From: a virus | Strand: one strand, 5' to 3' | DNA length: 64,000 nucleotides | Virus record (IMG/VR): IMGVR_UViG_3300020045_007008 | Coordinates: 17,450-81,449 of that record | Part shown: positions 9,923-41,025 of the stretch, one piece after another | Layout of the letters: every line of letters begins with the position of its first letter | Position numbering within the stretch: position 1 is the stretch's first letter | The notes under the pieces: generated by a model | Databases searched by the model: none | What the model saw: only the letters and a program-made list of their open reading frames with translations | What the model was told of the DNA's origin: nothing | Made by a program: the position numbers and the translations under genes

Positions 9923-11093
9923 TTAATATGCAAAGTATAGAACAAATTATAAATGAAGTAGACTTATTTAATGCTGATTTATCTAATATCACATTAAGCA
10001 AGAAAAAAAGAAAGGATTTTATAGTCTATCCTATTAAAAAGATTATTGATATTGATAATATCTTAATACAACAAGCAAATCTATTAAAATTTAACTTAGA
10101 TGATATAGAAGCAATGTTTACCAATAAGGATAGTTTAGATAGAACAAAAAAAGTAATTAAGACTTTAGAATATATCAATAATAATTATAAATTAATAAAG
10201 AAATAATATGACTAACAACATTAATGAAAACAATAAATTAAATCTTAAAAAGAGAACAAATGTTAGAATTCTAAAATTAGAAGAAGGAATAATAGTAGCT
10301 GTTCCTACACTAAAAGCAATCAGTGATGCAAGAATTTTAGATGTGAACGAAGATGGTTCATTTACAGCACATTGGAATGAAAATTGGAATGAAAGTGGTG
10401 ATTTTAGAACTGAATTAATGCGATTTGATAATAACCTAATATTTGATAATGGTGATAAAGAAAAAAGAAATAAAATTAGAAAAAATAATAATTTAATTGA
10501 AATTATATAATATGAAATCTAAAACTTGGGGCAAAAAAGTAAAATGTAAACGATGTGGGAAAGAAGGAGGAATTGAAGAAATAGAAGGTCGATTATTTTT
10601 TCAATGCTACGGTATCTGCCAGTTAAAGGAATATTTGAAAACATATAATATGAAGAAATATGTATAATAAAATATTACAATGCGAAGAATGTGGTCTATA
10701 TTATGATAATGAAGAAGATATCGAAAATATAGACGAAACCGGAGTATGTATAGATTGCGATAATCAATTTGAATGTATTATAAAATAAAAAATAAAAGTA
10801 TGAAATTACAAGGGAAATATAATATCGAAATCATAGTGAATGATAATTTTAATGAAAATCAAGTAATTAAAGTTACCACTACATCGACAAAAGAAATAGA
10901 AGAAAATTTAAGATTGCTTGATAAAATGATTGCAGAATATGACGAAGAAAATAACAAACAATGTTATCAATGTAATGAATATTTTCATATTGATGATATG
11001 AGTATTCCGGAAGGATTAGATGATGTACTCATATGTCAAGATTGTTTACAAAAGATATTAAGTGGAGAAATTATTCTTAAAAATATTGAAAGT

Positions 11094-11189
11094 TGTGGAT
11101 AACTATTTTATATGCTTTATTTATCACTAATATTAAATGAAAATAATTATTAAAATAATATTGACAAATTCTATATAATAATATATAAT
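11094..11189 (+). promoter_or_regulatory. DnaA box + TCACTAATATTAAA + sigma70 promoter cassette
   Basis: TGTGGATAA at 11094, TCACTAATATTAAA at 11124, TTGACA 11161-17 nt-TATAAT. Confidence 0.8.
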
Positions 11190-11493
11190 TATAATATAAG
11201 TAATTAAATAAGTATATGAAAAATAATGACATAATAGTAAATATAAAAAATCCAGAATATGGAGAATGGAAAGTAAGGGAAAGTGATATAGAAGGAATGT
11301 GGGAAATAACAAGCGATAGGGGTTCAAGAATGTTAAATAAAGATGAAGAAAAATTTTGGAGAATTATAGAAAAATAAATATAGCTAAGGTTATCTAGATA
11401 CGAGTTAAGAGCAAACAAGCTACTTCTCTTATGAAGATAACAAATAAAAAGATAACCTTGGCTATTCATATAATTTAAAATAAAAACAAAAAT

Positions 11494-12045
11494 ATGGAGA
11501 ACAAAAACAAAAAAATAGAAATCTTTACAATCAAAAACACTTTAAAAGCAATTATAGCATCGATAGTAGTATTTACACTTGCTTATTTATTAGTAAGCAT
11601 AATAGTATTTCCTACTATAGCAGTTCAGAAATTTATAACATTTATTAAAAATCCAGTTCCTATTTATAAAATAGCAGAGATTAATTGCATTCAAGAAAAA
11701 AAATATAAATATAATGATAAAATTCCAGTAGAAATTATTAAAAATGAAATTAAGAAACAAGCTATAGAATTTAATAATGATGCTAGATTTATGCTAGAAT
11801 TGGGACATTGTGAAAGTGGATTTAATAACTTAGCAGATAATTCAATCAGTACAGCTAAAGGAGTATTTCAATTTGTAGCTAATACGTGGGAAGTAACAGA
11901 ATCAAATACAAAAAAAATTAGTGAATTTGACTATATTGCAAATATCAGAGAAGCCAATATAAAAATTGCTAATCATGAATATCATCATTGGGTTGATTGT
12001 ATAGCAGATATAAAAGCTGGTGAATTCAAATCATTAAAATTTTAA
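11494..12045 (+). CDS. Membrane-anchored lytic transglycosylase-like (SLT/Rpf-like) protein
   Basis: N-terminal TM helix; CESGFN..A.N..STAKGVFQF...TW motif. Confidence 0.75.
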   Translation: MENKNKKIEIFTIKNTLKAIIASIVVFTLAYLLVSIIVFPTIAVQKFITFIKNPVPIYKIAEINCIQEKKYKYNDKIPVEIIKNEIKKQAIEFNNDARFMLELGHCESGFNNLADNSISTAKGVFQFVANTWEVTESNTKKISEFDYIANIREANIKIANHEYHHWVDCIADIKAGEFKSLKF

Positions 12046-12130
12046 ATAGCACATTAACTCATATGTGCCGGTAGACGAAACTCGTCTATCGCAACAAGTG
12101 AATTAATATTAAACAAAAAGGAGAACTAAA

Positions 12131-12382
12131 TTGGAAAAGACAAACTGTCCAAAATGCCAGCGAGATATATACGGCAGAGCAGACAACTTTAAATGCTATT
12201 CTTGCGGAGACTACAAACGCAATCATGACGGCAAGTTAATCCCCACTACTTGCACAAGTTGCTCACAGCCTTTAACTAAGGGCTACTACAACACAGATAA
12301 AGGATTTATTTGTCCAGCTTGTATAGACACAAAGTTTATCCAAGAAAACAAAGACCTAATATCCAAACTCTATCGGGGATAA
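12131..12382 (+). CDS. Multi-CxxC zinc-finger protein (SD-led, TTG start)
   Basis: Four CxxC pairs; AAAGGAG upstream; followed by a GGGGAT/ATCCCC-TTTT terminator at 12375-12396. Confidence 0.65.
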   Translation: MEKTNCPKCQRDIYGRADNFKCYSCGDYKRNHDGKLIPTTCTSCSQPLTKGYYNTDKGFICPACIDTKFIQENKDLISKLYRG

Positions 12383-12600
12383 TATATCCCCCTTTTAAAA
12401 GATTATTAAATTATAATATGACCAAAAACCTAAAACCAATAATTAAATAAGTAATAAGTTTATGGAAAAGATGTTTAAATTAGTGGAAAGCCTTGAATCT
12501 TTAACAGAAAAAAAACTATTAATATTAATTATAGGTCTTCTTTTATCAAGAAAGGAAGACAGAAAAGAATTAGTAGAACAATTAACTAATCAATAAGTTT

Positions 12601-12794
12601 ATGGACAAAGAATGGACAAAAATAGTAAAAAACAAGATGACGCTAGATGAGATATTCGCTATAGACAATTTAGAACATCGTAGAATAGCAGATGATAATA
12701 TTTTGCAATTCGATATGAAGAGAAATGCTTGGAGGCTAAAGCTGGACTTATCGGACTTAGCACCGATGAAATAGAGTGGGTTAAAGAATATTAA
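12601..12794 (+). pseudogene. Probable internally deleted or frameshifted gene remnant
   Basis: Starts MDKEWTKIVKNKMTLDEIFAIDNLEHRRIA; a plausible C-terminus (CLEAKAGLIGLSTDEIEWVKEY) lies in another frame. Confidence 0.4.
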
Positions 12795-12808
12795 TTTTAA
12801 ATAATAAT

Positions 12809-12997
12809 ATGAAATACGAAGAAAAAATATTCTAGTCAGGCGTAACTATCGGCGTAGTAATAGCCGTTATAGCGTTTTTGATTACATTCGCCACTCTCTT
12901 CGCCCTAAGAGCCGAAGCCCAGACAGAGATTACGGCGAGGGTGGAGGAAAATATTTGTAATAGTAATATTGAAATTTTAAAAGTGTGTTGTAAATAA
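12809..12997 (+). pseudogene. Small membrane protein gene with an in-frame TAG at codon 9
   Basis: MKYEEKIF*SGVTIGVVIAVIAFLITFATLFALRAEAQTE...; typical leader, and the frame continues 53 codons past the stop. Confidence 0.5.
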
Positions 12998-13002
12998 AAA
13001 TT

Positions 13003-13146
13003 ATGAAAATCTATAGAACATTATGCCCTAATTGTGGAGAAGAAATGGATAATTTAATTGTTTTTGATTATCATTTCGAGTGCCCAATTTGTCATAAACA
13101 TGTTTCATATGAACTTGCTAAGAGAAGACAAATACATATTTACTAA
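13003..13146 (+). CDS. Zn-ribbon micro-protein
   Basis: MKIYRTLCPNCGEEM...ECPICHK. Confidence 0.6.
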   Translation: MKIYRTLCPNCGEEMDNLIVFDYHFECPICHKHVSYELAKRRQIHIY

Positions 13147-13190
13147 AGTCGTTTCTTGCACTGTATTTCTTTTAGCGGATGATTGTAAAT

Positions 13191-13262
13191 TAATCCCCAC
13201 CACCAACCCTCTTGGGCAGGTTATTAATCTTGAGAGATTAATTTAATTGGTGGATGGGATTA
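13191..13262 (+). ncRNA. Structured intergenic element
   Basis: TAATCCC..CACCAA pairs with TTGGTG..GGGATTA, enclosing inner hairpins. Confidence 0.45.
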
Positions 13263-13278
13263 GCGGATAATTAAAAAC

Positions 13279-13476
13279 TAATCGTCCATTACAAGCTACG
13301 GGAGGCAGAATAGTAATGCATCTTAGAAATTGAACTAATGTTTATTTTCGGAGTAAGCAAGGTGACTATACAAGCGTGTCGCAGATGTAAAATTGCGACT
13401 GGCGGAGAGAATACCGCCTTTATAAAAAATTGACTACTTGTCAAATCCTTGCCCTGTAGCTTTTAGCGGATGATTA
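13279..13476 (+). ncRNA. tRNA-like RNA with a large T-loop insertion
   Basis: GCTACGGG/CCTGTAGC acceptor-like stem, D-arm-like GGCAGAATAGTAATGC, and GCAAGGT...TCAAATCCTTGC T-arm split by about 77 nt. Confidence 0.55.
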
Positions 13477-13606
13477 ATAATAAGTATAAAAATTATGGCT
13501 TACACACCACCAAAAAAAGAATGCGAACACGATATAGACCATATGTGGAATTATGATAAAGAGCGAAATCTATTTGTGTGTCTTAAATGTGGAGCAACTA
13601 AAAATT

Positions 13607-13730
13607 AATTACCCCCTCCCCTCCGATGAGAAATGAGCGAACCTGTTTTAATCAAAGGTCTAGAACTTTAGTTATTAATTGGCTTCATCCAAGCGCGCGA
13701 CCATTGCTCATCGGTAGAGAGTCGATAATT
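13607..13730 (+). ncRNA. Structured intergenic element
   Basis: CCGATGAG (13623) pairs with CTCATCGG (13707); GC-rich, no ORF. Confidence 0.4.
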
Positions 13731-14043
13731 ATTAAATAAAATATTATATGGAAAAAGAAAAATGCGCTAATTGTGGAAAGGCACTTAGCACAGACAAAGT
13801 TGAGCAAAGTAATTGGAAATTGTATTGCCCGGAATGTATAGAAAAAGACCCTACACTCTTACTTCCTGATTTACTAAATAAATAATATGAAACCAAAATA
13901 CAAATTTCACATTTCAATAATTGGTAACGAAAGCAAGCACAAAGCATTTGTGTCGGTTAATACCAATATTAATGAGAAAGAAGTCATCGCCCTGGAGAAA
14001 AAGATATATGGTGTTATTAAAAGGCATTTAGAGAAGAAATAAT

Positions 14044-14271
14044 ATGGAAAATGAAATAATCAAAAGGTTTAGGAAATTATTGGTTGAAGACCAATTATCG
14101 CAACCTGACTGTGAAAAATTCATCCTCTCCGAACTTAAAGCCTTAAAAGAGGAGTGTGTCGGGAAAAAAAGAATTTATACACCAGATATGCCAGCTTCTT
14201 ATAAATTTTTTAGAGGCTATAATAAAAAAAGAGAAGAAATAATCAAAGCCTTCGAAAAGCGAGGTATTTAA
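14044..14271 (+). CDS. Hypothetical protein
   Basis: ORF with typical AATATG leader. Confidence 0.55.
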   Translation: MENEIIKRFRKLLVEDQLSQPDCEKFILSELKALKEECVGKKRIYTPDMPASYKFFRGYNKKREEIIKAFEKRGI

Positions 14272-14276
14272 AATAT

Positions 14277-14489
14277 ATGAAAGAACATAAATGCTGACCA
14301 ATAAAAATAGGTGAACATCCAAATAGCAATCAGTATAGGTTTCAATGTTTAAAACAAAAAGGATTTTTACATTTTGTTGAAATTTATAATTGTTGGACTT
14401 GTTGGGAAAAAGTAGAATTTAGAATACCATTTTTACAGTCAATATTTTTTAAAAAGACATTATATTGGAAAGTACACGGAGAAAAATAA
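14277..14489 (+). pseudogene. Small gene with an in-frame TGA at codon 7
   Basis: MKEHKC*PIKIGEHPNSNQYRFQC...CWTCW...; the frame continues 63 codons past the stop. Confidence 0.5.
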
Positions 14490-14562
14490 ATAATAAAATT
14501 TTAGTAAAATATTCTAAAGATAAGAATATAAATTTATAATAACATTAAACATTATTTAGATA

Positions 14563-14591
14563 TTGACTTTTTATATAATATTATATATAAT
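14563..14591 (+). promoter_or_regulatory. sigma70-type promoter of the replication module
   Basis: TTGACT-17 nt-TATAAT. Confidence 0.8.
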
Positions 14592-14617
14592 AATTAAATA
14601 ATAAATAATATAATTCT

Positions 14618-14944
14618 ATGAAATTAACAATCAAAAAAATCACAAAAAATCAAAAAATTTCAAAAAAAACAAATAATCCATATACTTCAATCGGTCTATT
14701 AACTGAAGAATATGGTGATAAACAATGGATTAATGGTTTCGGCAATAAACAAAATGAAGATTGGAAAATTGGAGATGTAATAAATGTTGAACTTACACAA
14801 GGAGAATATAATGGAAATAAAACATTGAATTTTTCTATGATTGATGAGAAAGAAAATAATTCTAATAAATCAGATGATAGAATTATTAATGCTTTAAGAG
14901 AAATTTATACGAAATTACAAGAAATTGAAAAATTAATTAAATAA
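14618..14944 (+). CDS. Putative OB-fold single-stranded DNA-binding protein
   Basis: Beta-rich small protein (K..PY..IGL...W.NGF.....W..GD.I.V) at the head of the replication module. Confidence 0.45.
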   Translation: MKLTIKKITKNQKISKKTNNPYTSIGLLTEEYGDKQWINGFGNKQNEDWKIGDVINVELTQGEYNGNKTLNFSMIDEKENNSNKSDDRIINALREIYTKLQEIEKLIK

Positions 14945-14981
14945 AAAAAAGTAATTAGCTTGTCAGTTATTTACTAAAAAG

Positions 14982-15257
14982 ATGAAAGAAAAAGAAATTA
15001 TATCATTAAATGAGCTTTACAAATCAAAAAAAATTTATTGGATAGATACTTCATTAACATTAAGAAAATGGATACAAAGAGATATTATTACAAATAATAT
15101 TTTAGAAGCAAAAACAATAGAGTCAAATGGATATCAAACAGGATTAAGATATTACATTCCTAAAAAGAATGTGAATTCGTTTATTATTGCCTTTGAACAA
15201 GGAAATTTATATGAAAAAAACAATACAACTAATAGAAAAAATCCACCAAGAATATGA
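14982..15257 (+). CDS. Putative HTH/excisionase-like DNA-binding protein
   Basis: TLRKWI...L.A......G.RY.I pattern. Confidence 0.4.
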   Translation: MKEKEIISLNELYKSKKIYWIDTSLTLRKWIQRDIITNNILEAKTIESNGYQTGLRYYIPKKNVNSFIIAFEQGNLYEKNNTTNRKNPPRI

Positions 15258-15756
15258 AGAAGAATTTTTTAATCTCCAAATCCAAAAGGACCAATTAGAT
15301 ACTATCATTGAAGTTGATAGAATTTTAGAAATATTAAATCTCGGTAAAGTTGACGAAAAGGTCAAAGAGAACCGGGATTTTTTATTCTGGGATGGGGATA
15401 AATTAATTAATGCAGAAGCAAAATTATCTCGATATTCAGAAAAGATTGGAGATTGGATTACATTTCATGAATCACGGTCAGATTTTTCTTGGCTATGGCG
15501 TAAAGGAAAAATGTCAGAAGATTGGCTACCAATGAAAACAGAAATAAAAAATAATCTTGGAAAGGTAACAAATGATGATGTGAATAATAAACTAGTTGAA
15601 AAATATCTAGGTGAACAATTCTATTCTATGTTTCATAGAAGACGAGCAGATTATCTAATTAGAAAAATCGATGCAATAGATAGAATGTTAAGAACAATTG
15701 CCCACCGGTTAAAAGAATTAAGCAGACAACAATCATTACCACAGGATAATAATTAA
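15211..15756 (+). CDS. Hypothetical protein
   Basis: Long ORF in the replication module. Confidence 0.6.
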   Translation: MKKTIQLIEKIHQEYEEEFFNLQIQKDQLDTIIEVDRILEILNLGKVDEKVKENRDFLFWDGDKLINAEAKLSRYSEKIGDWITFHESRSDFSWLWRKGKMSEDWLPMKTEIKNNLGKVTNDDVNNKLVEKYLGEQFYSMFHRRRADYLIRKIDAIDRMLRTIAHRLKELSRQQSLPQDNN

Positions 15757-15799
15757 TTTGATTTTTATATTGAATAATGTTCTAATATAAAAAATTAAT

Positions 15800-16777
15800 A
15801 TGACAAAAAATAGATATATAAATACAAGAATGTGGCGTGATGTTTCATTTAGAAAATTTACTAAAGATGAAAAATTGTTATTCTTATATTTATTAACTAA
15901 TCCAGATACTAATATAGCAGGAATATATGAAATACCACTTGACCAAATATCTTTAGATACAGGAATAAGTGAAAATGATATTAAATCTATTTTTAAAAAT
16001 TTTGAAAAATTTGATAAAATTTTCTATATTGATGGGTGGGTTTTTATTAAAAATTTTATAAAATATCAAAAAATAAATCCAAAAATTGAAATTGGCATTG
16101 AAAACTGTAAAAAAGAAGTACCATCTAAAATTTATTTAAAGTTACAGAAAATTGATAGCCTATTAAAGCCTATCGATAGCATTTCAAAGCCTTCGAATAA
16201 TAATAATAAGAATTATAATAATAATTATAATAAGAATATTATTACGCAGAAAAAATCTTCGATTTTGTCTGACAGTGGATTAATATTTGATTTTGACCAA
16301 GAAAAGGAAAAAATGCAATCTAGTAAATTACTATGGCGAAAGATATTAATAAATTACTGGTTGATAAAAGACATAAAAATAACCTCTCGTGAAATGTTTA
16401 AATCTGCACATGATAGAGATATAAAATCATCAAAGTCAATTGCTTGTTATGAATATGATGATATAATCGGTTGTATGCAATGGCTAAAAAATACTGCTGA
16501 TTATGATTGGAAATTAGAAACAATACATAAAAAAATAGATTGGTATTTAAAAAACATCAAGAATATAAATATAAAACAAGATAATGAAGATAAAAGAAAA
16601 ATATTATCAAAAGATTGTAAAATATGTAAAGATGGATATATTCTAATGGTGAATGATAAAAAATACGAGGAATTATTACCATGTGAGTGTATATATTCAA
16701 CAATTTCAACAAAAAAACTAGAAGAATTGAAAGAATATATCAAAAAAAATAATTTCAAGATGAAAGTTGATACCTAG
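15800..16777 (+). CDS. Phage replication initiator/replisome organizer
   Basis: R.I.T.MW.D..F......KLLFLYLLTNP.TNIAGIYEI....I..DTG N-terminal wHTH; low-complexity Asn linker with DNA repeats. Confidence 0.8.
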   Translation: MTKNRYINTRMWRDVSFRKFTKDEKLLFLYLLTNPDTNIAGIYEIPLDQISLDTGISENDIKSIFKNFEKFDKIFYIDGWVFIKNFIKYQKINPKIEIGIENCKKEVPSKIYLKLQKIDSLLKPIDSISKPSNNNNKNYNNNYNKNIITQKKSSILSDSGLIFDFDQEKEKMQSSKLLWRKILINYWLIKDIKITSREMFKSAHDRDIKSSKSIACYEYDDIIGCMQWLKNTADYDWKLETIHKKIDWYLKNIKNINIKQDNEDKRKILSKDCKICKDGYILMVNDKKYEELLPCECIYSTISTKKLEELKEYIKKNNFKMKVDT

Positions 16778-16908
16778 TTCACTATTAGCATATTGAAATT
16801 CCTTGAAATTCGATAGCGTGCTAATGAGTTTAGGTGAAAGTTAATATAATATACATTCCATAAAAAAATAACCGTAGAAACGCGTATAATCGCAAATCTA
16901 TCAAGACT

Positions 16909-18435
16909 ATGTATCTAGAAGCATTGAAATATCTAAAATTAGGTTGGTCTATAATACCAATAGGTGAAAATAAACGACCACTTATTGCTTGGAAAAAATA
17001 TCAGACTGAATTACCAACAGAACAAGATATTGAATTATGGTTTAAAGAACCAGAGAAAATGGGTAAAGCACCAAATATTGGATTGATAACTGGAAAAATT
17101 TCAAATGTTACTGTAGTTGATGTTGAAAATGGTGGGAATGCAAATGATTTGCCAGAAACATTAATATCAAAAACAGGTGGAGGTGGGTTTCATTATTTTT
17201 TTAAATATCAAAAAGATATTGGAAATCTAGTACGAGTAAGAGAATTAACTGATATTCGCAACGATGGTGGCTATGTCATCCTTCCTCCCTCCAAATCTAC
17301 CAAAGGAGGATATGAATGGAGGAAAATAATTCCACTTGTTGAATTTCCAATTGAATTATTCAATGTAAAAAAATTCAATAAACCAGAGAGAATAGATATA
17401 CCTATTCCTGAATATCCCGGAGTAAATGATGGTCAGAGAAATGATGCTATGCTGAGATATATTGGAAAAATAATTCCATTAATTCATCCATTGGATTGGG
17501 AGACAATCGGCTGGGAAAAAATAAAAGAAGCAAATGAAAAAAATAATCCACCATTAACAGAAAAAGAAATTAGAGGAATGTTTGATGGAATTTGTAAAAA
17601 TGAAAAAAATAATCCAAGTCTAAGAAAAGGAGTTCCAATAATACAAGAAGAGGAAGACGATGATGAAGATATTTTACCTATTTGGCAAATTGCAGAAATG
17701 ACAGATATGAAAGATTTAGAAACATTCCCTTGTGGAATAGATGATTTTGATAATGCTATCATGGGAGGATTTAAAGAAGGAGATTTGATAGTTATTACTG
17801 CTAAAACCGGTGAGGGTAAGACGACTTTTGCTCAGTCAATAACTTATAATATGGCGAATAATGGAGTACCTTGTTTATTCTTTTCTTATGAAGTTTTAAT
17901 TACAAATGTTTGGAAAGCATTTCAGAAGATGGGAGCAACGAATGAACATTTAATTTTTTCTCCATTTAAAACATCATCTGGAACAATAGATTGGCTTGAA
18001 AGAAAAATATTACAAGCAATAAAAAAATATGGTACGAAAATGATTGTGATTGACCACTTGGGATTTTTATTTCCTCGTAAAACTGGATTCGATTCACAAA
18101 TGAGTGCAAATTATTCTGCTTTTCTTGGAAATGTATGTAGAGATTTAAAAACATTAGCTATAAATAATAAATTAATAATTATTCTTTTAGCTCATTTAAG
18201 AAAAACAGATAAACCAACTATCAATGATTTAAAAGATAGTGTTGGTATAGGACAAGAATCAGATACTGTATTTATTTTAGAACGACAATTAGCAAATCAA
18301 AAAACTGGTTCAACTGAATTATATTCAAATGATACTATGATTACTTTAGTAAAAAATAGAATGGGAGGAAGTACACCAAAAGTATTATGTCATCTAGAAA
18401 ATGGACGATTTAAAAAGAAATTTGAATTAAATTAG
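16909..18435 (+). CDS. Bifunctional primase-polymerase fused to a PriCT domain and DnaB-like helicase
   Basis: NIGLITG...VVDVE...TGGGGFHYFF...DIR.DGGYV; GQRND; Walker A AKTGEGKT; VIDHL; LKDS..I.QESD. Confidence 0.9.
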   Translation: MYLEALKYLKLGWSIIPIGENKRPLIAWKKYQTELPTEQDIELWFKEPEKMGKAPNIGLITGKISNVTVVDVENGGNANDLPETLISKTGGGGFHYFFKYQKDIGNLVRVRELTDIRNDGGYVILPPSKSTKGGYEWRKIIPLVEFPIELFNVKKFNKPERIDIPIPEYPGVNDGQRNDAMLRYIGKIIPLIHPLDWETIGWEKIKEANEKNNPPLTEKEIRGMFDGICKNEKNNPSLRKGVPIIQEEEDDDEDILPIWQIAEMTDMKDLETFPCGIDDFDNAIMGGFKEGDLIVITAKTGEGKTTFAQSITYNMANNGVPCLFFSYEVLITNVWKAFQKMGATNEHLIFSPFKTSSGTIDWLERKILQAIKKYGTKMIVIDHLGFLFPRKTGFDSQMSANYSAFLGNVCRDLKTLAINNKLIIILLAHLRKTDKPTINDLKDSVGIGQESDTVFILERQLANQKTGSTELYSNDTMITLVKNRMGGSTPKVLCHLENGRFKKKFELN

Positions 18436-25616: not shown

Positions 25617-26072
25617 ATGTATCAAAAAGATGTAATACAATTATATAAAGAATTAAGTAAAAAATATAATTGTGATTATAGACTTGAATTTAATAATAGA
25701 AAAACAGTTTTAGGCTCTTGCAATTATAATAAAAAAGTTATTTCATTATCTAAACCATATATAGAATCAAATAAAGATGAAGTAATTAAAAATACAATAT
25801 TACACGAAATAGCTCACGCATTGACAAAAAGTGGGCACGATAAAAAATGGAAATTAAAATACATAGAAATTGGTGGAAATGGAAATAGAGTAAATTATGA
25901 AGCAGTTATAAAATATAAATATATTGCTACCTGTCCTGAATGTGGATATGAAACTGAATATAATAAAAGACAAAGCGTAGCGTGCCATAAATGTTGTGTG
26001 AAATATAATAATGGTAAATTTTCAAATAAATATATTCTAATATTTACTGAAAATAAAAATATAAAGTTATGA
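25617..26072 (+). CDS. SprT-like zinc metalloprotease
   Basis: TILHEIAHAL...H...WK plus CPEC/CHKC. Confidence 0.85.
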   Translation: MYQKDVIQLYKELSKKYNCDYRLEFNNRKTVLGSCNYNKKVISLSKPYIESNKDEVIKNTILHEIAHALTKSGHDKKWKLKYIEIGGNGNRVNYEAVIKYKYIATCPECGYETEYNKRQSVACHKCCVKYNNGKFSNKYILIFTENKNIKL

Positions 26073-26596
26073 ATTATAATGAAAAAGATATAAGAGAATT
26101 TTTAAGTGAATCAAATAAGATAGAACGAGAATATTCAGAACAGGCATTTGAAGATGCAATTTTAGCTTGGAAATATGCATATAAATATGCGATACCGTTT
26201 AAAATTAAGGGACTTCAAAGTACAAAATATATTTTAAAAATACATAGATTATTATGTCAGAATATAAGACCAGATATCGCTGGTAAGTATAGAGATTGTG
26301 ATGTTTGGATAGGTGGAGAAATAAAAAGATTTATAAGCAGAAAATTTTTAGAAGATGTTACTCAAGGTTGGATTAATACTATAGATATAAATCAAACAAA
26401 AAAATTAACAAAAAAGAAAAAAGAAGAAAAAGTAAAAGAATGGCATATTGGATTTGAGAAATTGCACCCATTCGAAGATGGTAATGGCAGAACAGGAAGA
26501 ATATTATACAACATTCATAGATTATTATTAGATTTACCAATACATATAATTCATACTGGAGATGAACAGTTAAATTATTATCGATGGTTCAAATAA
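26069..26596 (+). CDS. Fic-domain protein (AMPylase-type)
   Basis: Canonical HPFEDGNGRTGR motif; ESN.IE N-terminal motif. Confidence 0.9.
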   Translation: MNYNEKDIREFLSESNKIEREYSEQAFEDAILAWKYAYKYAIPFKIKGLQSTKYILKIHRLLCQNIRPDIAGKYRDCDVWIGGEIKRFISRKFLEDVTQGWINTIDINQTKKLTKKKKEEKVKEWHIGFEKLHPFEDGNGRTGRILYNIHRLLLDLPIHIIHTGDEQLNYYRWFK

Positions 26597-27121
26597 ATGG
26601 ATAATAAAGTTTGGATTATAACCGATACACATTTCAATCACAGAAAGATGGTAGAATATTGTACTAGGCCAGAAAATTTTGATGAGCTTATTTGGAAAAG
26701 ATTGAAAATAATTAATGAAAATGATTTATTAATTCATTTAGGTGATATTTGTATTGGTAAAGATAATGAAGTTCACGCGCATCTAAATGGTTTATTAAGA
26801 TGTAAAAAAATATTAGTCAAAGGAAATCACGATAAGAATAGTAATAATTGGTATTTAAGAAATGGTTGGGATTTTGTTTGTAATACATTTAGTGATTATT
26901 ACTTTGGTAAGAATATATTATTTAGTCATATTCCACATAAAGATATTGGTTATGATATAAATATACACGGTCATTGTCATACTACACCGAGGACAAAAGA
27001 TAACAATCCCGATATGAATGATAAACAGATATTATTAGCTATTGAAAATACAAATTATCAACCAGTTTTATTGAATACTTTAATAAGTTCATATATTAAA
27101 AATTATGAAAATAGAAGATAA
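26597..27121 (+). CDS. Metallophosphoesterase
   Basis: DTHF.H, HLGD, GNHD, SH.P and HGH.H motifs. Confidence 0.85.
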   Translation: MDNKVWIITDTHFNHRKMVEYCTRPENFDELIWKRLKIINENDLLIHLGDICIGKDNEVHAHLNGLLRCKKILVKGNHDKNSNNWYLRNGWDFVCNTFSDYYFGKNILFSHIPHKDIGYDINIHGHCHTTPRTKDNNPDMNDKQILLAIENTNYQPVLLNTLISSYIKNYENRR

Positions 27122-27247
27122 GATAAAAGAAGAATTATTGAAATTGAAAATGAATAAAAATAATTTAGGATATCTTGGAGAATTATCAGAAAAGCATAAA
27201 GCAATAAATAGAACAATATATAAAGCTATAAAAATTATAGATAAGAT

Positions 27248-27871
27248 ATGTCAACAATCAAAACTAGAAAAGAAAAAGGAAAAAAATTAGAAAATTGGAT
27301 TTCAGATAGAATGATGGAAAAGAGATTAGGTATTGCAAGTAAATCTCCTGGAAGTGGAAGTGGTACAAGAGAAAAGGCAGATATAGTTAATTCAGTTATA
27401 ATAGTAGAAAGAGAAACAAAAGAAAAAAGAGGATTAGGTATAGAAGCAAAAAATCACAAAACACCACATATACGAGAATGGTGGGAACAAACATTGAAAT
27501 TAGAAACAGGAGATTCAAATAGAATTCCAGTACTAGTCTATAAATTAGAGGGAGAAAAATATTTTGATAGTAAAGCAGTTATAAGATTAGAAACATTTTT
27601 AGATTTAGTAAAAGATAATTGTGAGTTATATGGAAATTTAAAACAACTAACAGAACAATTAGATAAAAGTGAAGAATGGAAAAGTGAAAGTATGAAAAAT
27701 AAATTAAATAATTGTTTAAATATGATTGAACTTGGTAGAAATAAATTAATGAGTAATAGTAAAGTAGAAAAGATAGAAGATTGGAATAATTATAATATGC
27801 AGAATGGAAATGAATATCTTAAGAAATCCAAAACAATAATAAAAGACTGTATAAATTTAATTGAAAAATAA
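27248..27871 (+). CDS. Hjc-like Holliday junction resolvase
   Basis: KG..LE...GSG....ADI...IEAKN motif. Confidence 0.65.
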   Translation: MSTIKTRKEKGKKLENWISDRMMEKRLGIASKSPGSGSGTREKADIVNSVIIVERETKEKRGLGIEAKNHKTPHIREWWEQTLKLETGDSNRIPVLVYKLEGEKYFDSKAVIRLETFLDLVKDNCELYGNLKQLTEQLDKSEEWKSESMKNKLNNCLNMIELGRNKLMSNSKVEKIEDWNNYNMQNGNEYLKKSKTIIKDCINLIEK

Positions 27872-27999
27872 TATGAAAATAAATCTAAAGATTAGTTTCT
27901 TATTAGCGATGATATTATCTTGGTTTTTCTTTGATTGGAAAATAGCACTGATTGTTTCTTTATTTGTAATGGATTTTAAATATACTAATATAAAATAAT

Positions 28000-28687
28000 A
28001 TGACAAAGACATTAACAATAAATTTACCACAATCATTTGTTTCTGCTTTACATAGAAGACATCATGGAGTAGAACACACTGAAGAAGAAATACAGAAAAA
28101 ATTTAAACATATTACAGAATTATATAATGGTTATAAAAAATCGGTAAACAGTCTTAATAAATTATGGGAATTTTGGAATAGAGAAAATGTTGAGAGTTAT
28201 TTTAAAAGGCCAAAATGGTATAATGCACATTCGAGAAGAAGGAAATTAGAAGAAAAAATAAAAAGATATCATGAATATATGTTTAGCACATTGACTTCTT
28301 TTGATGGTAATAGTGGCCAATCATTTTCAACTTTTCATTGTATTTCGCCAGAAGAAATATATGAAGATTTTTTAAAAAAATATATAAAATAATATGACAG
28401 ATAAAATTTTATCTTTAGGGGTGATGTATTATGGAAAGGTTAAGATAATTAAGAGTAAAGATAATATAGAATTAGTTCAAATACCAGGACAAAGTTGGTC
28501 TAATCAAGGATTTAAACATTATTCAACACCATTATTTATCATACATAATAATAAAGAAGAATTATTTTCAGTTGAGTATGATAGAAAAACAAGAAAAGAA
28601 GCAATAAAAATTGCAGATTTACATTTTGATAAAATATTAAATAATATAAAATTTGATAGAAAAGTAATAGATTTAAAAAATTATTAA
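28000..28687 (+). other. Two hypothetical proteins (28000-28392, 28394-28687)
   Basis: Packed ORFs. Confidence 0.55.
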
Positions 28688-28691
28688 AAAT

Positions 28692-29981
28692 ATGTTAAGT
28701 ATCTCAAAAACAGCCAATTCAAATTATCTTGCTAAAATAGTAAAAATAAAGAATTTAAGAAAACATAATAATGCAGATAGACTACAAATAACAAGTATTG
28801 ATTTTCAAGATGTTATTGTTGGATTAGATGCAAAAGAAGGAGATATCTATTGTTTTTTTCCATTAGAGTGCCAAATAAATAAGAATTTTTTGTCATTTAC
28901 CAATTCATTTAGGCATAGTGAATTAAATCAAGATAAAGAAAAAGTTGGATTTTTTGAAGATAATTGTAGAGTACGAGCAGTAAAATTAAGAGGAGAAAAG
29001 TCAATGGGATATATAGTTCCAATTGAAGAATTAGAAAAATTCATTGGAAAAGATTTAAAAGATTATATTGATGAAGAATTTGATACTGTTGATAATATTT
29101 TATTATTACAAAAATACATAATAAAGACTAGAGAATCTAATATCACCAATGGTAAAGGAAGGAAGCTAAAAATATCAAGACTAGTAGAAGGACAAGTTAG
29201 ATTGCATGTTGATACTGAAAATTTAAGAAAGAATGCTTTTAAAATCAATCCAGAAGATGAAATTACTATTACATATAAAGTTCATGGGACATCTTGGTGG
29301 GTAAGTAATTTATTAGTAAAGAAAAAATTAAATTTATTTTATAAGTTTTTAAAACTAATTGGAATTAAAATTATAGATAAAGAATATGATTATATCTACG
29401 GTTCAAGAAAAGTCGTAAAAAATGAATATGAAACATCAGGAAAACAACATTTTTATGATACTGATATTTGGGGAGAAATAAAGGAAGAAATAAAAGAATT
29501 TATTCCAAAAGGATATACTATTTACGGTGAATGTTTAGGATATACAAAAAGTGGAAGTGAAATTCAAAGTAAATATGACTATGGTTGTAATGTAGGAGAA
29601 AAAAGAATTCAGATATATAGAATTACCTTTACTAATGAAGATGGAGTAGTTAATGATTTATCTTCAAAACAAATAAAAGAATTTTGCGATAGATTTGGAT
29701 TAGAATATGTACATATATTTTATATGGGATTAGCAGGAAACTTATATCCAGAATTAAACTTAAATGAACATTGGCAAGAAGAATTCATTAGAAGATTGGA
29801 GAAAGATTACAATGACAAAAATTGTTTTATGTGTAAAAATGAAGTACCAGAAGAAGGAATAGTATTGAGAAAAGAAACACTATTTTATTTTGAAGCATAT
29901 AAATTGAAGTCTTGGAAATTTCTTGAGTGGGAATCGAAGGAATTAGATAAAGGAGAAGTCGATATAGAAAGTAATAATTAA
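28692..29981 (+). CDS. RNA ligase (Rnl2/DRB0094-like, with N-terminal OB fold)
   Basis: H.NADRL OB fold, motif I KVHGTS, IYGE, EGIVLR and KLKS. Confidence 0.85.
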   Translation: MLSISKTANSNYLAKIVKIKNLRKHNNADRLQITSIDFQDVIVGLDAKEGDIYCFFPLECQINKNFLSFTNSFRHSELNQDKEKVGFFEDNCRVRAVKLRGEKSMGYIVPIEELEKFIGKDLKDYIDEEFDTVDNILLLQKYIIKTRESNITNGKGRKLKISRLVEGQVRLHVDTENLRKNAFKINPEDEITITYKVHGTSWWVSNLLVKKKLNLFYKFLKLIGIKIIDKEYDYIYGSRKVVKNEYETSGKQHFYDTDIWGEIKEEIKEFIPKGYTIYGECLGYTKSGSEIQSKYDYGCNVGEKRIQIYRITFTNEDGVVNDLSSKQIKEFCDRFGLEYVHIFYMGLAGNLYPELNLNEHWQEEFIRRLEKDYNDKNCFMCKNEVPEEGIVLRKETLFYFEAYKLKSWKFLEWESKELDKGEVDIESNN

Positions 29982-29999
29982 TAATTTAAAATTAATATT

Positions 30000-30341
30000 A
30001 TGAATATAAAAAATGGAGATGTGTGCTTTTCACTTGATGGAGAACATTTTAATGATGATTGGGAAAGAATAGAAGAATTAAAGAGTGGAGAAAAATATTA
30101 TAAAGCAATTACTAGAGAAATTAGATTAGAAGATTTAATTGATGTAGATAGTATATTGGAATATATGCAAGAAAGAGCGGGTGAAGAATGTGGTGATGCG
30201 TCAGAAGATTATCTTATGGATTTGTTTGGAAATCAAAAACATAAAGATGAGCTATTAGATTTAATATGTAATTGGTTTAAATTAAAAGAATATCAACCAA
30301 ATTTCTATGCTGTGGATGATATTGAGGAATTAATTAAATAA
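30000..30341 (+). CDS. Acidic hypothetical protein
   Basis: ORF in operon. Confidence 0.55.
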   Translation: MNIKNGDVCFSLDGEHFNDDWERIEELKSGEKYYKAITREIRLEDLIDVDSILEYMQERAGEECGDASEDYLMDLFGNQKHKDELLDLICNWFKLKEYQPNFYAVDDIEELIK

Positions 30342-30343
30342 AT

Positions 30344-30571
30344 ATGATTTATTTTTTCACATCAAAAAAAGATACAAATTGTAAATTAATGAAACCGATA
30401 ATAGATAGACTACAAAGAAAATACATTATTGAAATCATAGATATAGATGAACATAGAGAACTGGTTAAGAATTTTGAGATAAAAGAATTACCAACATTAG
30501 TAAAACGAAATGGTAGATTATTCGGTATAGCATCAAAACAAAAGATAGTAGAATTTTTAAATAGTAATTAA
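30344..30571 (+). CDS. Thioredoxin-like protein with degenerate active site (DTNC)
   Basis: F.....C..MKP.I...IDIDE...L...F.I..LPTL pattern. Confidence 0.7.
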   Translation: MIYFFTSKKDTNCKLMKPIIDRLQRKYIIEIIDIDEHRELVKNFEIKELPTLVKRNGRLFGIASKQKIVEFLNSN

Positions 30572-30847
30572 AAATATGAATTTATTAAAATGTATTATTG
30601 TAGGAATTATTCTTGATGTCTTAATGATATTATGGATTATTCATTTAGCAAATTAATATGAAAAAATTAATAGTATTTATTGTATTATTTTATCAGTTCG
30701 CCTCTGGTTATTGGATATTTGGGTTTTCTATCCCGCGAGTGACATCTATCGCTATAGACAGCAATGGTCAATGTGTAAAATGGGAAGGAGAACAAAGACA
30801 ATGTACTATTGACGAAATATATATGATGAATAATCTTTACAAATTAT

Positions 30848-31696
30848 ATGAAGAATAAAATATTAGTACTAAAAGGACTCCCAGCTTCAGGTAAAACGAC
30901 ATTTGCAAAAAAGTTGATTAATGAAGAAAAGAATTGGAAAAGAATAAATAAAGACGATTTAAGAGCAATGATTGATAATAATATTTGGAGTAAAGACAAT
31001 GAAAAACTTATCTTAAAAATAAGAGATAATATTATTATTGATTGTTTAGTAAATAAATATAATATTATTATTGATGATACTAATTTTGCAGAAAAACACA
31101 TTAATCGAATAAATGAAATTGCAGATAGACTTGACGTTGAAGTAGAAGAAAAGTTTTTCGATATTCCAGTAAATGAATGTATTAAAAGAGATTCGGAAAG
31201 ACCCAATCCAGTAGGAAAAAAAGTCATAATGAATATGTATAATACCTATTTAAAAAAAGAAATACCACCAGTAAAATGGATAAGTAAAAGAAGAACTGCT
31301 ATAATATGTGATATAGATGGTACATTGGCAAAAATGAAAAATAGAGGACCATTTGATTGGATGAAAGTAGAGAATGATGAATTAAATAAACCAGTTGCTG
31401 ATATATTAGAAAAATATCAAGATAGTGTAGATACAATTCTTTTAAGTGGTAGAGATGGAATATGTAGAGAACAAACAGAACAATGGTTAGCTGATAATAA
31501 TATAAAATATACTTGTCTTTTTATGAGAGATATTGATAATAATGAAAAAGATAGTATAATAAAAGAGAGAATATATAGAGAAAAAATAGAATCATTATAT
31601 AATATTTTATTTATTCTCGATGATAGGACTCAAGTAGTAGAGATGTGGCGTAATTTAGGATTAACTTGTTTTCAAGTAGCAAATGGCGATTTCTAA
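30848..31696 (+). CDS. pseT: Polynucleotide 5'-kinase/3'-phosphatase (T4 PseT-like)
   Basis: GLPASGKTT, N.DDLR, DDTN; HAD DIDGTLA, LSGR, DDR.QVV.MWR..GL. Confidence 0.92.
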   Translation: MKNKILVLKGLPASGKTTFAKKLINEEKNWKRINKDDLRAMIDNNIWSKDNEKLILKIRDNIIIDCLVNKYNIIIDDTNFAEKHINRINEIADRLDVEVEEKFFDIPVNECIKRDSERPNPVGKKVIMNMYNTYLKKEIPPVKWISKRRTAIICDIDGTLAKMKNRGPFDWMKVENDELNKPVADILEKYQDSVDTILLSGRDGICREQTEQWLADNNIKYTCLFMRDIDNNEKDSIIKERIYREKIESLYNILFILDDRTQVVEMWRNLGLTCFQVANGDF

Positions 31697-31697
31697 C

Positions 31698-31769
31698 GCC
31701 CAGGTGGCCAAATTGGCTAGGCGATAGACTGCAAATCTATTAATGGAGGTTCGAGTCCTCTCCTGGGCT
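31698..31769 (+). tRNA. tRNA-Cys (GCA)
   Basis: GCCCAGG/CCTGGGC acceptor; ATAGA-CTGCAAA-TCTAT anticodon arm; GGTTCGAGTCC T arm; no encoded CCA. Confidence 0.92.
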
Positions 31770-31937
31770 CAATATAATTAATAATATAAAAATATGCTTG
31801 TTCAATGTGAAGTTTGTAATAAATCATTTGATGCTAAAGATGATAGTATTCCAGTATGTGATGAATGTTTAGAGCTTAATTCAAGGGAGTATTGGGAGCA
31901 AGCACTATTTGATGAGTTTGATTATTAAATTTAACAT

Positions 31938-32442
31938 ATGAAAAAAATATTAATTATATTGACGATACTAGTAATATTATATTTACTATTAATACCAGTT
32001 AATGCGGACGAACCAAAACAAATGAATATTACTATTTCTGAATATCCAGAAAAGACATTAACAATATCACAGAGTTTTGAAATGACAGCTAATGTACCAA
32101 AAAGTGACTATTATAAATGTTTAGATGTTTGTTTCTGTGATGATAGCCCAGATATGGATGAAAAACAATGTAGGGATATTTGTAAAATTTATTGTTATAA
32201 TACTTATGTTAAATAATATGGCATTAACAGCCGAACAAAGATTAAGGGCAATAAGTAAAATAATTGAATCTGATATGGGATTTGAGGCTGATACATATTC
32301 ATTAAGAAAAAATAAAGACAAAGATGCTCAATTATTTGCTGATATGATAATGGAAGTATATATGATAGTTCATCCACATTTTGGATGTAAACACAATGAT
32401 TGGGATGATAATACATATAAATTATCTGAAGAATATGAATAA
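31938..32442 (+). other. Two hypothetical proteins (31938-32216 with signal peptide; 32218-32442)
   Basis: Packed ORFs. Confidence 0.5.
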
Positions 32443-33169
32443 CAACAAGATAGGTAAAATGAAAAAACAATTTATAGATATAATACCAGATGAATTAAAT
32501 ATCTGTCTATTGGGATTGCAAGGAAGTAGAGCATTAGGTATGGCTATGAATGAAGATGCTGATTATGATTATCGAGGTATATTTATAGAAGATAATAAAA
32601 AATTATTATCCCTAAGAAAGACAAAAGAAACTATTGATTTTGGTAGTTCAAAAGATGGTGAAGCAGAATTTGTTTTTCATGAAATTGGAAAGTTCTTCAA
32701 ATTAGCAATAGCTGGAAATCCAAATTTGATTAATTTATTATTTTTACCAGAATATAATTATTCAGATAATTATGGTAGAATGATAATTGCAAATAAAGAG
32801 TTATTTTTAAGTGAGAAGGCAATACGAAATTCATTTGGTGGATATGCATTTGGTCAGATGATGTATTTAAAAAGAAATCATAAATTTACTAAGAATAAAT
32901 CTATAGAAAGCAAAATAAAAAAACACATTAGACATTGCTTTTCTCTATTTGATATGGGAATAGAACTATTAGAAACAGCAAAAATAACATTTCCATTAGA
33001 GAATGCTAAAAAATATATTGAGATTGCAGAATGGAATGATGAAGATAGGTGGATGAAATTATTTGAGGAAACAAATGATAGATTTAACGATTGTAAATGT
33101 ATATTACCAAAAGAACCAAATATTTTATTATTAGAACATTTATTATTAAAAATTAGAGGGTTAGTGTAA
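32435..33169 (+). CDS. Pol-beta superfamily nucleotidyltransferase (RlaP/YcgL-like)
   Basis: GSRA.G......DYDYRGIF...E..KF..L...GNPN....LF motifs. Confidence 0.85.
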   Translation: MNNNKIGKMKKQFIDIIPDELNICLLGLQGSRALGMAMNEDADYDYRGIFIEDNKKLLSLRKTKETIDFGSSKDGEAEFVFHEIGKFFKLAIAGNPNLINLLFLPEYNYSDNYGRMIIANKELFLSEKAIRNSFGGYAFGQMMYLKRNHKFTKNKSIESKIKKHIRHCFSLFDMGIELLETAKITFPLENAKKYIEIAEWNDEDRWMKLFEETNDRFNDCKCILPKEPNILLLEHLLLKIRGLV

Positions 33170-33225
33170 TGGTAACACGATGGTCTCCAAAACCATAATT
33201 TAGAGTTCGAATCTCTAGCCTTCTG
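33155..33225 (+). tRNA. tRNA-Trp (CCA)
   Basis: AGAGGGT/GCCTTCT acceptor; ATGGT-CTCCAAA-ACCAT anticodon arm; TAGAG-TTCGAAT-CTCTA T arm; overlaps the upstream stop codon. Confidence 0.88.
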
Positions 33226-33794
33226 CATTTAATAAAAATATATTATAAATGCGTAAATTAACTAAAAAACAAAGAGAAAAATTAGCATATTCTCATCAAG
33301 TATTTTATAATGAAACTGGGACACATATCACAATAGAAATTGATAATGCAATAAGAAAAATATTAGGATATGAAATCCCATCTAATAGTGTAAGAATGTG
33401 GAAAATAAAATTATGAAAGAAAATACATATCAAGAATATAACAATTATAAAATATATCTCAATAATTGGGAAGAGTATTGTGTATGTGATTTACATGGAA
33501 ATTTAATAGAATGGAATTCGAGTTTCAGGACACTTAAAGAAGCAAAAGATTATATTGATAAAATATTAAATTAATATTATGTTTGATAAAAAAGAAAAAC
33601 ACTTATTAATAGCACTAGTTGAAGCACAAAAATCAACAGTTAGTTTATTAAGAGGATTTCGAAAACCAAATAGAGAAGAGCAAGATGAAAATGCTTATTA
33701 TAATAGAATAATTGAAAAATTAAATAAATTTTAATAATAAAGAAGAACCGAAACAATTAGCAGATAAAATTAATATTGAAGAGAAAAAATAGTT

Positions 33795-40331: not shown

Positions 40332-40390
40332 AATATTAACATTGATAAATATATATGTTTTATACAAGAAAAAAATATAAAAAAAATTAA

Positions 40391-40743
40391 ATAGTATATA
40401 ATGTTCAGAGGTGACTGAATAATCTATTAGTGAGTAGATAAGGTATAGCGAAAATTCATAGGGAATTAGTAGCTAGTTTATGAGTATATGACTTAATCAT
40501 TACTAAAAGGTATCACTACCGAGAGGCTCCAAATAAACTTAATGAGCCAATTATGCGTTAAGATGTTGATGTGCTGACTCCTAGGTTCGGTACAAAGATT
40601 GTATAATTTAGAGCAACAAATCTTAATCTTAAGATTAGCTCCTTATTGATAGAGTAGGCTCTATTGATTTGCAAAAATAAAAGATGAATAAGGTCTCATA
40701 ATAGAGGAAAACCTACTCCTCTCCTCTGAACATTGTATATTAT
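40391..40743 (+). ncRNA. About 350 nt structured RNA with tRNA-like ends
   Basis: GTATATAATGTTCAGAGG pairs with CCTCTGAACATTGTATAT (G-U wobbles); AGAGG/CCTCT T-arm-like hairpin adjacent to the 3' strand; no ORF. Confidence 0.6.
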
Positions 40744-41025
40744 AATATTATGTCATATACTAAAGAAAAAGCAATAGAACAATTGAATAAAGAAAGAGAA
40801 TTAAAATATTTATATTTTAATTATTTTAGACTATTGTTTCAAAAACTATTGAATAGATGATATGAGAATATATATAATTATTTACATATTAATGTATCTT
40901 TTTAATGTAATTGTTACTCCATTTATTTTTGGTGAAAAAAAATCATTCACTGAATTTAATCCTATTGAGTGGCTAGTGCATCTAGTATTTGATTTACCGA
41001 TAATTTATTTTTTATTCAAAACATT

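Follow-up and report, generated by a model that had tools for sequence, protein, structure and literature searches.

A stem-closed structured element in an accessory segment of a freshwater phage genome, a candidate non-coding RNA and not a tRNA

The RNAC and RNAD species of phage T4 (species 1 and 2 RNAs) are encoded among tRNA genes and have tRNA-like ends. In the early region of phage T7, the RNase III sites are simple hairpins of about 60 nt, long imperfect stems located between small early cistrons. Phage small RNAs are poorly understood, and in the excerpted text of PMC9697503 RNAC and RNAD stand as an example: they are phage-encoded, stable, non-decoding small RNAs, classed as late RNAs, with a function still unknown in 2022. 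YrlA-type Y RNAs, which are also found in phages, join a long helix, formed by pairing of their two ends, to a multi-branched, partly tRNA-like domain; their genes adjoin Ro60, and the order within the tRNA-like domain is T, "acceptor" stem-loop, D (excerpts of Chen et al. 2014, PMC4201824). We analyzed a window of 64,000 nucleotides (positions 17,450 to 81,449 of IMG/VR record IMGVR_UViG_3300020045_007008; coordinates below are those of the window) from an uncultured freshwater phage whose source record is a complete virus genome of 81,449 bp with direct terminal repeats, a GC content of 27.5% and nearly all genes on the + strand. At 13279-13476 the window carries an element that a sequence-only reading had described as a tRNA-shaped RNA with a 77-nt structured insertion in its T-loop. 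The element is not a tRNA. The explanation that we favor, tentatively and at somewhat less than even probability, is that it is a free-standing, accessory, horizontally exchanged, non-coding structured RNA and not a tRNA gene. By analogy it appears nearest in kind to phage small stable RNAs such as T4 RNAC and RNAD.

Folding of 13279-13476 on the + strand gave a minimum free energy (MFE) of -67.2 kcal/mol, against -42.0 +/- 4.0 kcal/mol for shuffled sequences (z -6.25), and none of 200 shuffles was as stable. The + strand folded 13.9 kcal/mol better than the minus strand (-53.3 kcal/mol, z -4.17), a difference due to three G-U pairs in the closing helix; folded as single-stranded DNA, the + strand had a z of -4.47. 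When all 198-nt segments of the genome were scanned on the + strand at a step of 33, not one of 2,463 was as low in MFE, and the GC-corrected residual of the element was -4.76 standard deviations (next best segment, -4.08). By these predictions the element is the most stable fold in the 81-kb genome. Its GC content is 0.39, compared with 0.275 for the genome and 0.09-0.2 for promoter-type spacers. The parts of the element are as follows.

13279-13476, + strand: whole structured element, 198 nt, supported by MFE, shuffles and genome scan
13279-13302, + strand: closing helix, 5' arm (outer plus acceptor-like stem), pairs with 13453-13476
13453-13476, + strand: closing helix, 3' arm, overlaps the third TTAGCGGATGATT copy
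13279-13287/13468-13476, + strand: outer stem, 9 pairs, one G-U
13293-13302/13453-13462, + strand: acceptor-like stem, 10 pairs in the MFE fold
13305-13319, + strand: D-like hairpin, 3 pairs, 9-nt loop without GG, pair probability 0.48-0.49
13322-13353, + strand: AU-rich hairpin at the anticodon/variable-arm place, 12 pairs, 4-nt loop, probabilities 0.67-1.0
13357-13362/13447-13452, + strand: T-like junction stem, 6 pairs, probability 0.52-0.54
13357-13452, + strand: conserved 3' domain, the T-like junction stem around three hairpins
13378-13399, + strand: GC-rich hairpin A, 7 pairs, 8-nt loop, probabilities 0.71-1.0
13401-13418, + strand: GC-rich hairpin B, 5 G-C/C-G pairs, 8-nt loop, probabilities 0.99-1.0
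13430-13444, + strand: hairpin C, 5 pairs, 5-nt loop, probabilities 0.68-0.95

All of the stems named in the sequence-only reading occur at the places it gave them, including the outer stem around the whole element and the two GC-rich hairpins inside the T-like stem, to which hairpin C adds a third. The closing helix comprises 22 pairs, three of them G-U, with pair probabilities mostly of 0.9-1.0, and corresponds to a 24-nt inverted repeat of 79% complementarity (I10). Pair probabilities were also firm for the AU-rich hairpin and hairpins A, B and C, but not for the D-like stem (0.49) or the T-like junction stem (0.53). Both of the latter are paired differently in an alternative fold that costs only 1.1 kcal/mol, through 13304-13308/13449-13453, 13310-13314/13365-13369 and 13317-13319/13357-13359. 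The T-like stem encloses 84 nt that start with U and end with UCAAAU, and the 3' strand of hairpin C provides most of the letters that had been read as a T-loop.

The element resembles each of the systems described above in part. Like YrlA, it has a long helix formed from its two ends and a branched, partly tRNA-like domain; unlike the YrlA of the excerpts cited above, its order is D-like, hairpin, T-like, and it has no TROVE/Ro60 gene and no Rfam match. A Ro60-bound Y RNA was rejected, since nothing in the complete 81-kb genome matched PF05731 at E <= 1 (the control was positive in 2 of 14 genomes). No Y RNA family matched in Rfam at E <= 10; the GNCGAAN0-1G motif given in the excerpts of PMC4201824 was not searched separately. 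The long imperfect stem between small early genes would be shared with the T7 RNase III hairpins, from which the element differs in enclosing about 150 nt of further structure and conserved sequence. An RNase III site calls for about 20 or more pairs of double-stranded RNA, and 22 are predicted here. The T4 RNAs, as far as the excerpts describe them, are late and belong to a tRNA cluster, whereas the element lies among early-type mini-genes, 18 kb from a tRNA gene.

No full-length homologue of the element was found in any collection or in any of the loci fetched, in scans from which records very near the window's own genome were possibly omitted. By blastn (distant setting), the element had no copy among 50,697 records of phages and 72,556 of plasmids; there was none matching exact or gapped patterns in IMG/VR viral contigs, where one pattern search gave 2 matches, both within coding sequence of unrelated contigs, and nothing matching exact patterns in JGI metagenome contigs or in the genomes of 185,579 species. 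Relatives of the PrimPol-helicase of this phage numbered 0 in viral contigs with a single query; an alignment (A1) gave 22 metagenome and 79 viral loci. Over 22 metagenome loci, and then over 103 loci, the best match to the element by blastn and nhmmer was 24 nt long (E 0.019). BLAST against 5 whole related virus records gave a sole match below E 0.1, a 29-nt AT-rich stretch outside the element, and a covariance model of the core (R1) run over 1.34 Mb recovered the window itself only, at 145.6 bits. No relatives were found for the accessory proteins encoded at 14044-14271 and 12131-12382.

Fragments of the element were present in contigs of 151-196 nt from four DNA sequencing runs, X1 to X4, belonging to four studies of freshwater or freshwater sediment. 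The X1 contig covers 13308-13458 with zero differences and may come from the same phage. In the contig of X2, a stretch of 47 unlike letters leads into a match to 13357-13458 that has 2 differences. X3 gave two contigs: the first matches 13284-13313 with 4 differences and 13353-13447 with 2, and has 71 other letters where the window has the intervening 39 nt (13314-13352, at the AU-rich hairpin); the second matches 13446-13481 with 1 difference and is unlike the window to the left and right of this match. The X4 contig matches 13216-13281 with 3 differences and is unlike the window from 13282 on. The sole variant listed was 13388 T>C, in the loop of hairpin A. This comparison comprised 11 pieces from 10 records, none with a contig spanning the whole element; records 1, 3, 5, 8 and 9, which are 33-39-nt matches with 3-6 differences elsewhere in 12600-14300, were treated as chance. 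The switches between like and unlike sequence fall at 13281/2, 13313/4, 13352/3, 13356/7, 13445/6 and 13481/2. All but one lie no more than 5 nt from a helix boundary of the MFE fold; the exception, 13313/4, is inside the D-like loop. Judged from these alignments, the pattern would fit a structured RNA with a conserved core and replaceable arms, and would also fit mosaic recombination among phages. No base pair is backed by covariation, because no full-length homologue was obtained and no contig spans the element.

The element shows no sign of coding. Its minus-strand open reading frame (ORF) of 51 aa had no homologue, and the 31-aa ORF on the + strand (13338-13433) had as its sole match among 1.84 billion representatives a 652-aa tandem-repeat artefact. 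The block conserved in other samples matches the limits of neither ORF. We consider it extremely improbable that the + strand ORF is a hidden gene for a small protein with one CxxC, like the neighboring zinc-ribbon mini-proteins. Those neighbors are indeed CxxC proteins of 37-83 aa, and 13388 T>C is synonymous in the 13338-13433 frame, but the conserved block (13353/13357 to 13458) is off the limits of the ORF, there is no real homologue among the representatives, and the ORF has only one CxxC.

The description of the element as tRNA-shaped did not hold. ARAGORN found 4 tRNAs in the window (Cys, Trp, Met and Thr, none with an encoded CCA) and no tmRNA, and none of these calls was at the element. 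We ran the program at default thresholds on the intact element and on a deleted form from which 13364-13440 (77 nt) had been removed by coordinates in a script, each with and without the intron option, which models anticodon-loop introns only; all 4 runs returned nothing. With lowered thresholds alone a 94-nt "tRNA-Lys" appeared, with two unpaired acceptor-stem positions, together with a spurious minus-strand call. Rfam 15 gave no family at the element, whether searched at the gathering score, across 12800-14200 with E <= 10 or across the full window with E <= 0.1. Like tRNA (RF00005), the element has a closing stem that stacks, on its 3' side, on another stem, and once 13364-13440 is removed it also has a four-way junction and a T-arm-like motif. 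It differs in having no 7-nt anticodon loop, no contiguous T-loop in the intact RNA and only a 3-pair D-like stem whose loop is without GG, and its stack of acceptor-like and T-like stems has 8-10 + 6 pairs (14-16) versus 7 + 5 (12) in tRNA. The element does not encode CCA, and neither do the real tRNAs of the phage. At the place of an anticodon or variable arm stands a hairpin of 12 pairs with a 4-nt loop and no anticodon loop. A tmRNA was rejected, with none found in the window by ARAGORN and none by Rfam.

Removing the insert was expected to restore a T-arm and a cloverleaf, and it does so in part. Against a sequence profile of 31 phage tRNAs the deleted form scored 8.0 bits, in the T-arm only (E 0.0017 in 1,452 nt), while real tRNAs scored 32.8-36.0 bits and the intact element gave no match; a T-arm-like hairpin is obtained, yet still no tRNA call. 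The deleted form folds as a four-way junction, which is cloverleaf in topology only: the anticodon place is taken by the 12-pair hairpin with its 4-nt loop, and a spliced product could not decode because it would have no anticodon loop. Given the stem, the letters flanking the T-arm would arise by chance about 1/300 of the time, an estimate from base composition. A loose pattern of a split T-arm next to a 7-pair acceptor occurred 116 times in the genome, compared with a mean of 97 in 20 Markov shuffles, and fails to pick up the element, whose stems are longer. Since this loose pattern is near chance frequency, resemblance to tRNA motifs is weak evidence; the T-arm likeness is a real motif but, as evidence, a weak one.

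The earlier proposal of splicing by the phage RNA ligase and PNKP was not supported. It would make the element a tRNA precursor from whose T-loop the 77-nt insert is cut out, the ends being re-joined by the two enzymes, whose genes lie in an RNA-repair-type cluster of the window.

26069-33226: RNA-repair-type cluster with Fic, RNA ligase, PNKP, tRNA-Cys, RlaP and tRNA-Trp, far from the element
26069-26596: Fic protein gene
28692-29981: RNA ligase gene
30848-31696: PNKP gene
31698-31770: tRNA-Cys
32381-33169: RlaP nucleotidyltransferase gene
33155-33226: tRNA-Trp

Both genes are present and the deletion yields a T-arm-like hairpin, but what results lacks an anticodon loop, draws no tRNA call and would be unable to decode. 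In Rfam, neither group I nor any other intron family was recognized across 12800-14200 with E <= 10. No bulge-helix-bulge was seen at the junctions on inspection by eye only, and no nuclease to cut the two insert junctions was evident. In other metagenomes, moreover, no part of the element is better conserved than the "insert", an unusual property for an intron. We regard this precursor as scarcely credible. An intron-bearing tRNA, with either a group I or a protein-spliced intron, was likewise rejected, with no intron core recognizable at E <= 10 and the ARAGORN intron mode blank. Annotation of the element as a tRNA or as an intron-bearing tRNA should be avoided.

The inference of a scaffold or decoy survives in part, in that the element is discrete, structured, non-coding and on the + strand and could be a scaffold; its tRNA identity does not survive. 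A scaffold or decoy derived from a tRNA would use the coaxial stack of acceptor and T stems to be handled by tRNA enzymes and would occupy a tRNA-targeting host factor, a reading to which we give only modest weight. It would, at the same low level of probability, involve RNase P, RNase Z and CCA-adding enzymes, with the AU-rich hairpin and the three-hairpin block as cargo. The closing stem does stack on the 6-pair stem with zero nucleotides between them on the 3' strand, the deleted form has its T-arm match and its four-way junction, the phage keeps RNA ligase, PNKP and RlaP beside tRNA genes, and the equivalent variable segment of a relative carries a tRNA-Gly. Set against these are the blank default runs of ARAGORN and the lack of an Rfam tRNA match at E <= 10, the missing contiguous T-loop, D-loop GG and CCA, the stack of 14-16 and not 12 pairs, the probability of only 0.53 for the T-like stem, and the chance frequency of loose split T-arms in the genome; in addition, one X3 contig keeps the 3' strands while the letters directly 5' of 13446 are unlike the window. 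Somewhat less probable again, and in our view quite unlikely, is that the element founds a class of tRNA-derived phage RNA, with folded cargo docked at the anticodon region and the T-loop, excised from an early polycistronic transcript and acting in trans. Such an RNA would be excised by tRNA-processing or double-strand-specific RNases and would target a host or phage factor; a candidate is a tRNA-directed defence nuclease, to which the set of ligase, PNKP and RlaP also answers. No tRNA-like phage RNA with a T-loop insert is described in the titles and abstract openings of the literature searched.

The setting of the element is that of an accessory gene region. It lies in a 348-nt gap between tiny genes for zinc-ribbon proteins of 47 aa (13003-13146) and 37 aa (13495-13608), within a run of mini-genes for CxxC proteins of 37-83 aa that surrounds it on the same strand; the nearest tRNA gene is 18 kb off. 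Two promoters bear on its transcription.

11161-11189, + strand: sigma-70-type consensus promoter, hexamers 12/12, probably drives the operon with the element
14563-14591, + strand: next strong + strand promoter, hexamers 11/12

No terminator-like site was found within 11000-16000. The element is thus on its neighbors' strand, downstream of a 12/12 promoter and with no such site in between, a transcription context that favors the reading as a free-standing RNA. The PrimPol-DnaB gene (16909-18435) has homologues at 72% identity. In the related locus L002 the flanking genes are kept, with homologues of 11494-12045 and 14618-18435 at 54-72% identity, and 0.92 kb of unrelated small genes (L002, 3601-4521) stands where the window has 2.57 kb (12046-14617) including the element. 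In another locus, L003 (508-4956), the same gap is 4.4 kb and includes a tRNA-Gly(tcc). The segment 12046-14617, which holds the element, is hypervariable and accessory and lies between conserved genes.

Within this segment the element is accompanied by a direct repeat and by two further modules.

13172-13184, + strand: direct repeat copy 1, TTAGCGGATRATT, family D2
13260-13272, + strand: direct repeat copy 2, between module 1 and the element
13463-13475, + strand: direct repeat copy 3, within the 3' arm of the element
13185-13261, + strand: module 1, a long imperfect hairpin when the full intergenic region is folded (MFE and centroid)
13606-13731, + strand: module 3, inverted repeat I8 of 30 nt and 77% complementarity, fold z -2.55

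The repeat reads TTAGCGGATGATT at 13172 and 13463 and TTAGCGGATAATT at 13260, and at <= 1 mismatch these three are its only copies in the 81-kb genome. They bracket module 1 and the element in units 88 and 203 nt apart. The interiors of modules 1 and 3 and of the element have no common sequence. Three candidate roles for the repeat were rejected: a sigma-70 promoter, for which the hexamers are inadequate; a peptide C-terminus encoded by TTAGCGGATRATT, where the frames are closed a few codons upstream; and a CRISPR-like array, given the spacing of 88 and 203 nt.

These modules bear on the possibility that the element acts purely in cis, as a stem for mRNA processing or stability that punctuates a polycistronic early transcript, in the manner of the T7 RNase III sites, and has no function in trans. 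We consider this unlikely, though it deserves real weight. Three stem-closed modules (13185-13261, 13279-13476 and 13606-13731) alternate with tiny genes in one operon, the closing helix has about 22 pairs, and an inverted repeat at 56270-56662 also encloses a whole 104-aa gene. A simple processing hairpin, on the other hand, needs neither 150 nt of inner structure with three GC-rich hairpins nor interior sequence conservation of about 98% across studies, and the interiors of the three modules share no sequence.

The repeats and the mosaic fragments could also point to DNA, that is, to a small non-autonomous mobile or recombination cassette whose terminal inverted repeats and TTAGCGGATRATT repeats are ends or linkers for exchange between phages. 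The 24-nt terminal inverted repeats, a direct repeat that borders module 1 and the element and is absent from the rest of the genome, the mosaic presence (the X4 contig keeps module 1 and the repeat and differs from 13282 on), the swap of the whole 2.6-kb segment in L002 and the good fold of the + strand as single-stranded DNA (the z of -4.47 given above) are all consistent with a cassette. We nevertheless find it quite doubtful. A tyrosine integrase, a serine recombinase and a reverse transcriptase are all missing from the genome (the search did not extend to transposase families), which has the element in single copy, the breakpoints are mostly inside the element and not at its ends, the G-U pairs favor one strand, and there is no copy in the phage and plasmid records, nor by exact patterns in three large collections. 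Two related candidates were rejected on the same profile searches: an attP or integrative end, with 0 matches to PF00589 and PF00239 and two exact element patterns absent from the genomes of 185,579 species, and a retron non-coding RNA, with 0 matches to PF00078 (reverse transcriptase) at E <= 1 in the genome. A guide array of the TIGR or box C/D type was rejected as well, with 0 matches to PF01798 (Nop domain) and units 88 and 203 nt apart; TIGR arrays, in the excerpts of PMC12045711, have repeats of 8-12 nt and spacers of 9 nt.

A second stem-closed intergenic RNA is predicted at 40385-40750 (z -4.70; no Rfam match). It has a homologue in a distant relative (L044, 9705-10065; nhmmer E 1.9e-19), and in the alignment of these two sequences 19 of 76 predicted pairs are kept via two-sided changes, some of them in the long closing helix. 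This pair supports the view that stem-closed RNAs are a real, recurrent design in the lineage.

For a free-standing structured RNA we propose the following course. The analysis itself establishes the fold and its strand bias, the absence of a coding signal and of membership in a family, the mosaic conservation and the accessory position, whereas transcription, processing and a role in trans are what we infer. The small early genes and the element would be co-transcribed from the promoter at 11161, and the 22-pair closing helix would insulate an independently folding element from the flanking cistrons. A double-strand-specific RNase, for example host RNase III, could cut the closing helix and leave a stable core of about 150-170 nt. 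The working part would be the conserved 3' domain, 13357-13452, with its three hairpins around a junction, which most likely binds a protein or other partner, and the AU-rich hairpin 13322-13353 would be a replaceable peripheral arm. In class, the element is unclassified among phage structured small RNAs, with no Rfam 15 family.

Several results weigh against this explanation. The near-identity of the fragments could stem from recent transfer and not from selection, and a full-length homologue was not obtained. No RNA run is among those listed as carrying the element, and its sequence words are all but absent from the two RNA runs that belong to the X1 study. The inner junction is ambiguous, with two folds 1.1 kcal/mol apart, and cutting by RNase III is pure inference. 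L002, the closest relative that shares the flanking genes (PrimPol 72% identical), is without such an element. The element is dispensable for the lineage because it sits in a hypervariable accessory segment and because L002, with the same flanking genes, has none.

The interest of the element lies in its core, which recurs nearly unchanged in the freshwater metagenomes of other studies, whereas the periphery is exchanged. If expressed, the element would be a candidate for a hitherto undescribed family of RNAs having a sequence-specific partner, and its phage also has an RNA-repair set. The practical outcome is mostly corrective and concerns annotation: the element is not to be listed as a tRNA.

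Some further observations concern the element and its neighborhood. The string CTACGGGAGGCAG (13 letters, 13296-13308, on the 5' strand of the acceptor-like stem) occurs in 11,201 papers, and those among the matches listed are 16S V3-V4 amplicon studies; it is therefore the core of a universal 16S rRNA primer site. By a rough estimate, about 0.5 chance matches of any 13-mer from one 16S sequence are expected in the genome, and the match is possibly meaningless. The 5' arm of the inverted repeat in module 3 is C-rich and contains CCTCC. A 25-nt stretch at the start of module 1 (13179-13203) is 80% identical to 12225-12249 in the 83-aa zinc-ribbon gene (family D12), and both read K-L-I-P-T-T in one frame; the match could be fortuitous or could mark module 1 as the remnant of a decayed gene.

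Stop recoding by a suppressor tRNA was rejected for this genome, in which 97 long ORFs end in TAA (77), TGA (15) or TAG (5) and TAG terminates the conserved PrimPol gene. At 12809-12997, a frame that starts with ATG (12809) runs into a TAG (12833) after 8 codons and is open again beyond it, with a transmembrane-like stretch in which the only ordinary start is TTG at 12878; TAG is otherwise used as a stop in the genome. The inverted repeat at 56270-56662 is 22 nt long and 95% complementary, and lies between two larger genes around the whole of the 104-aa ORF (56312-56626); as RNA it is predicted to form a closing stem of about 30 pairs.

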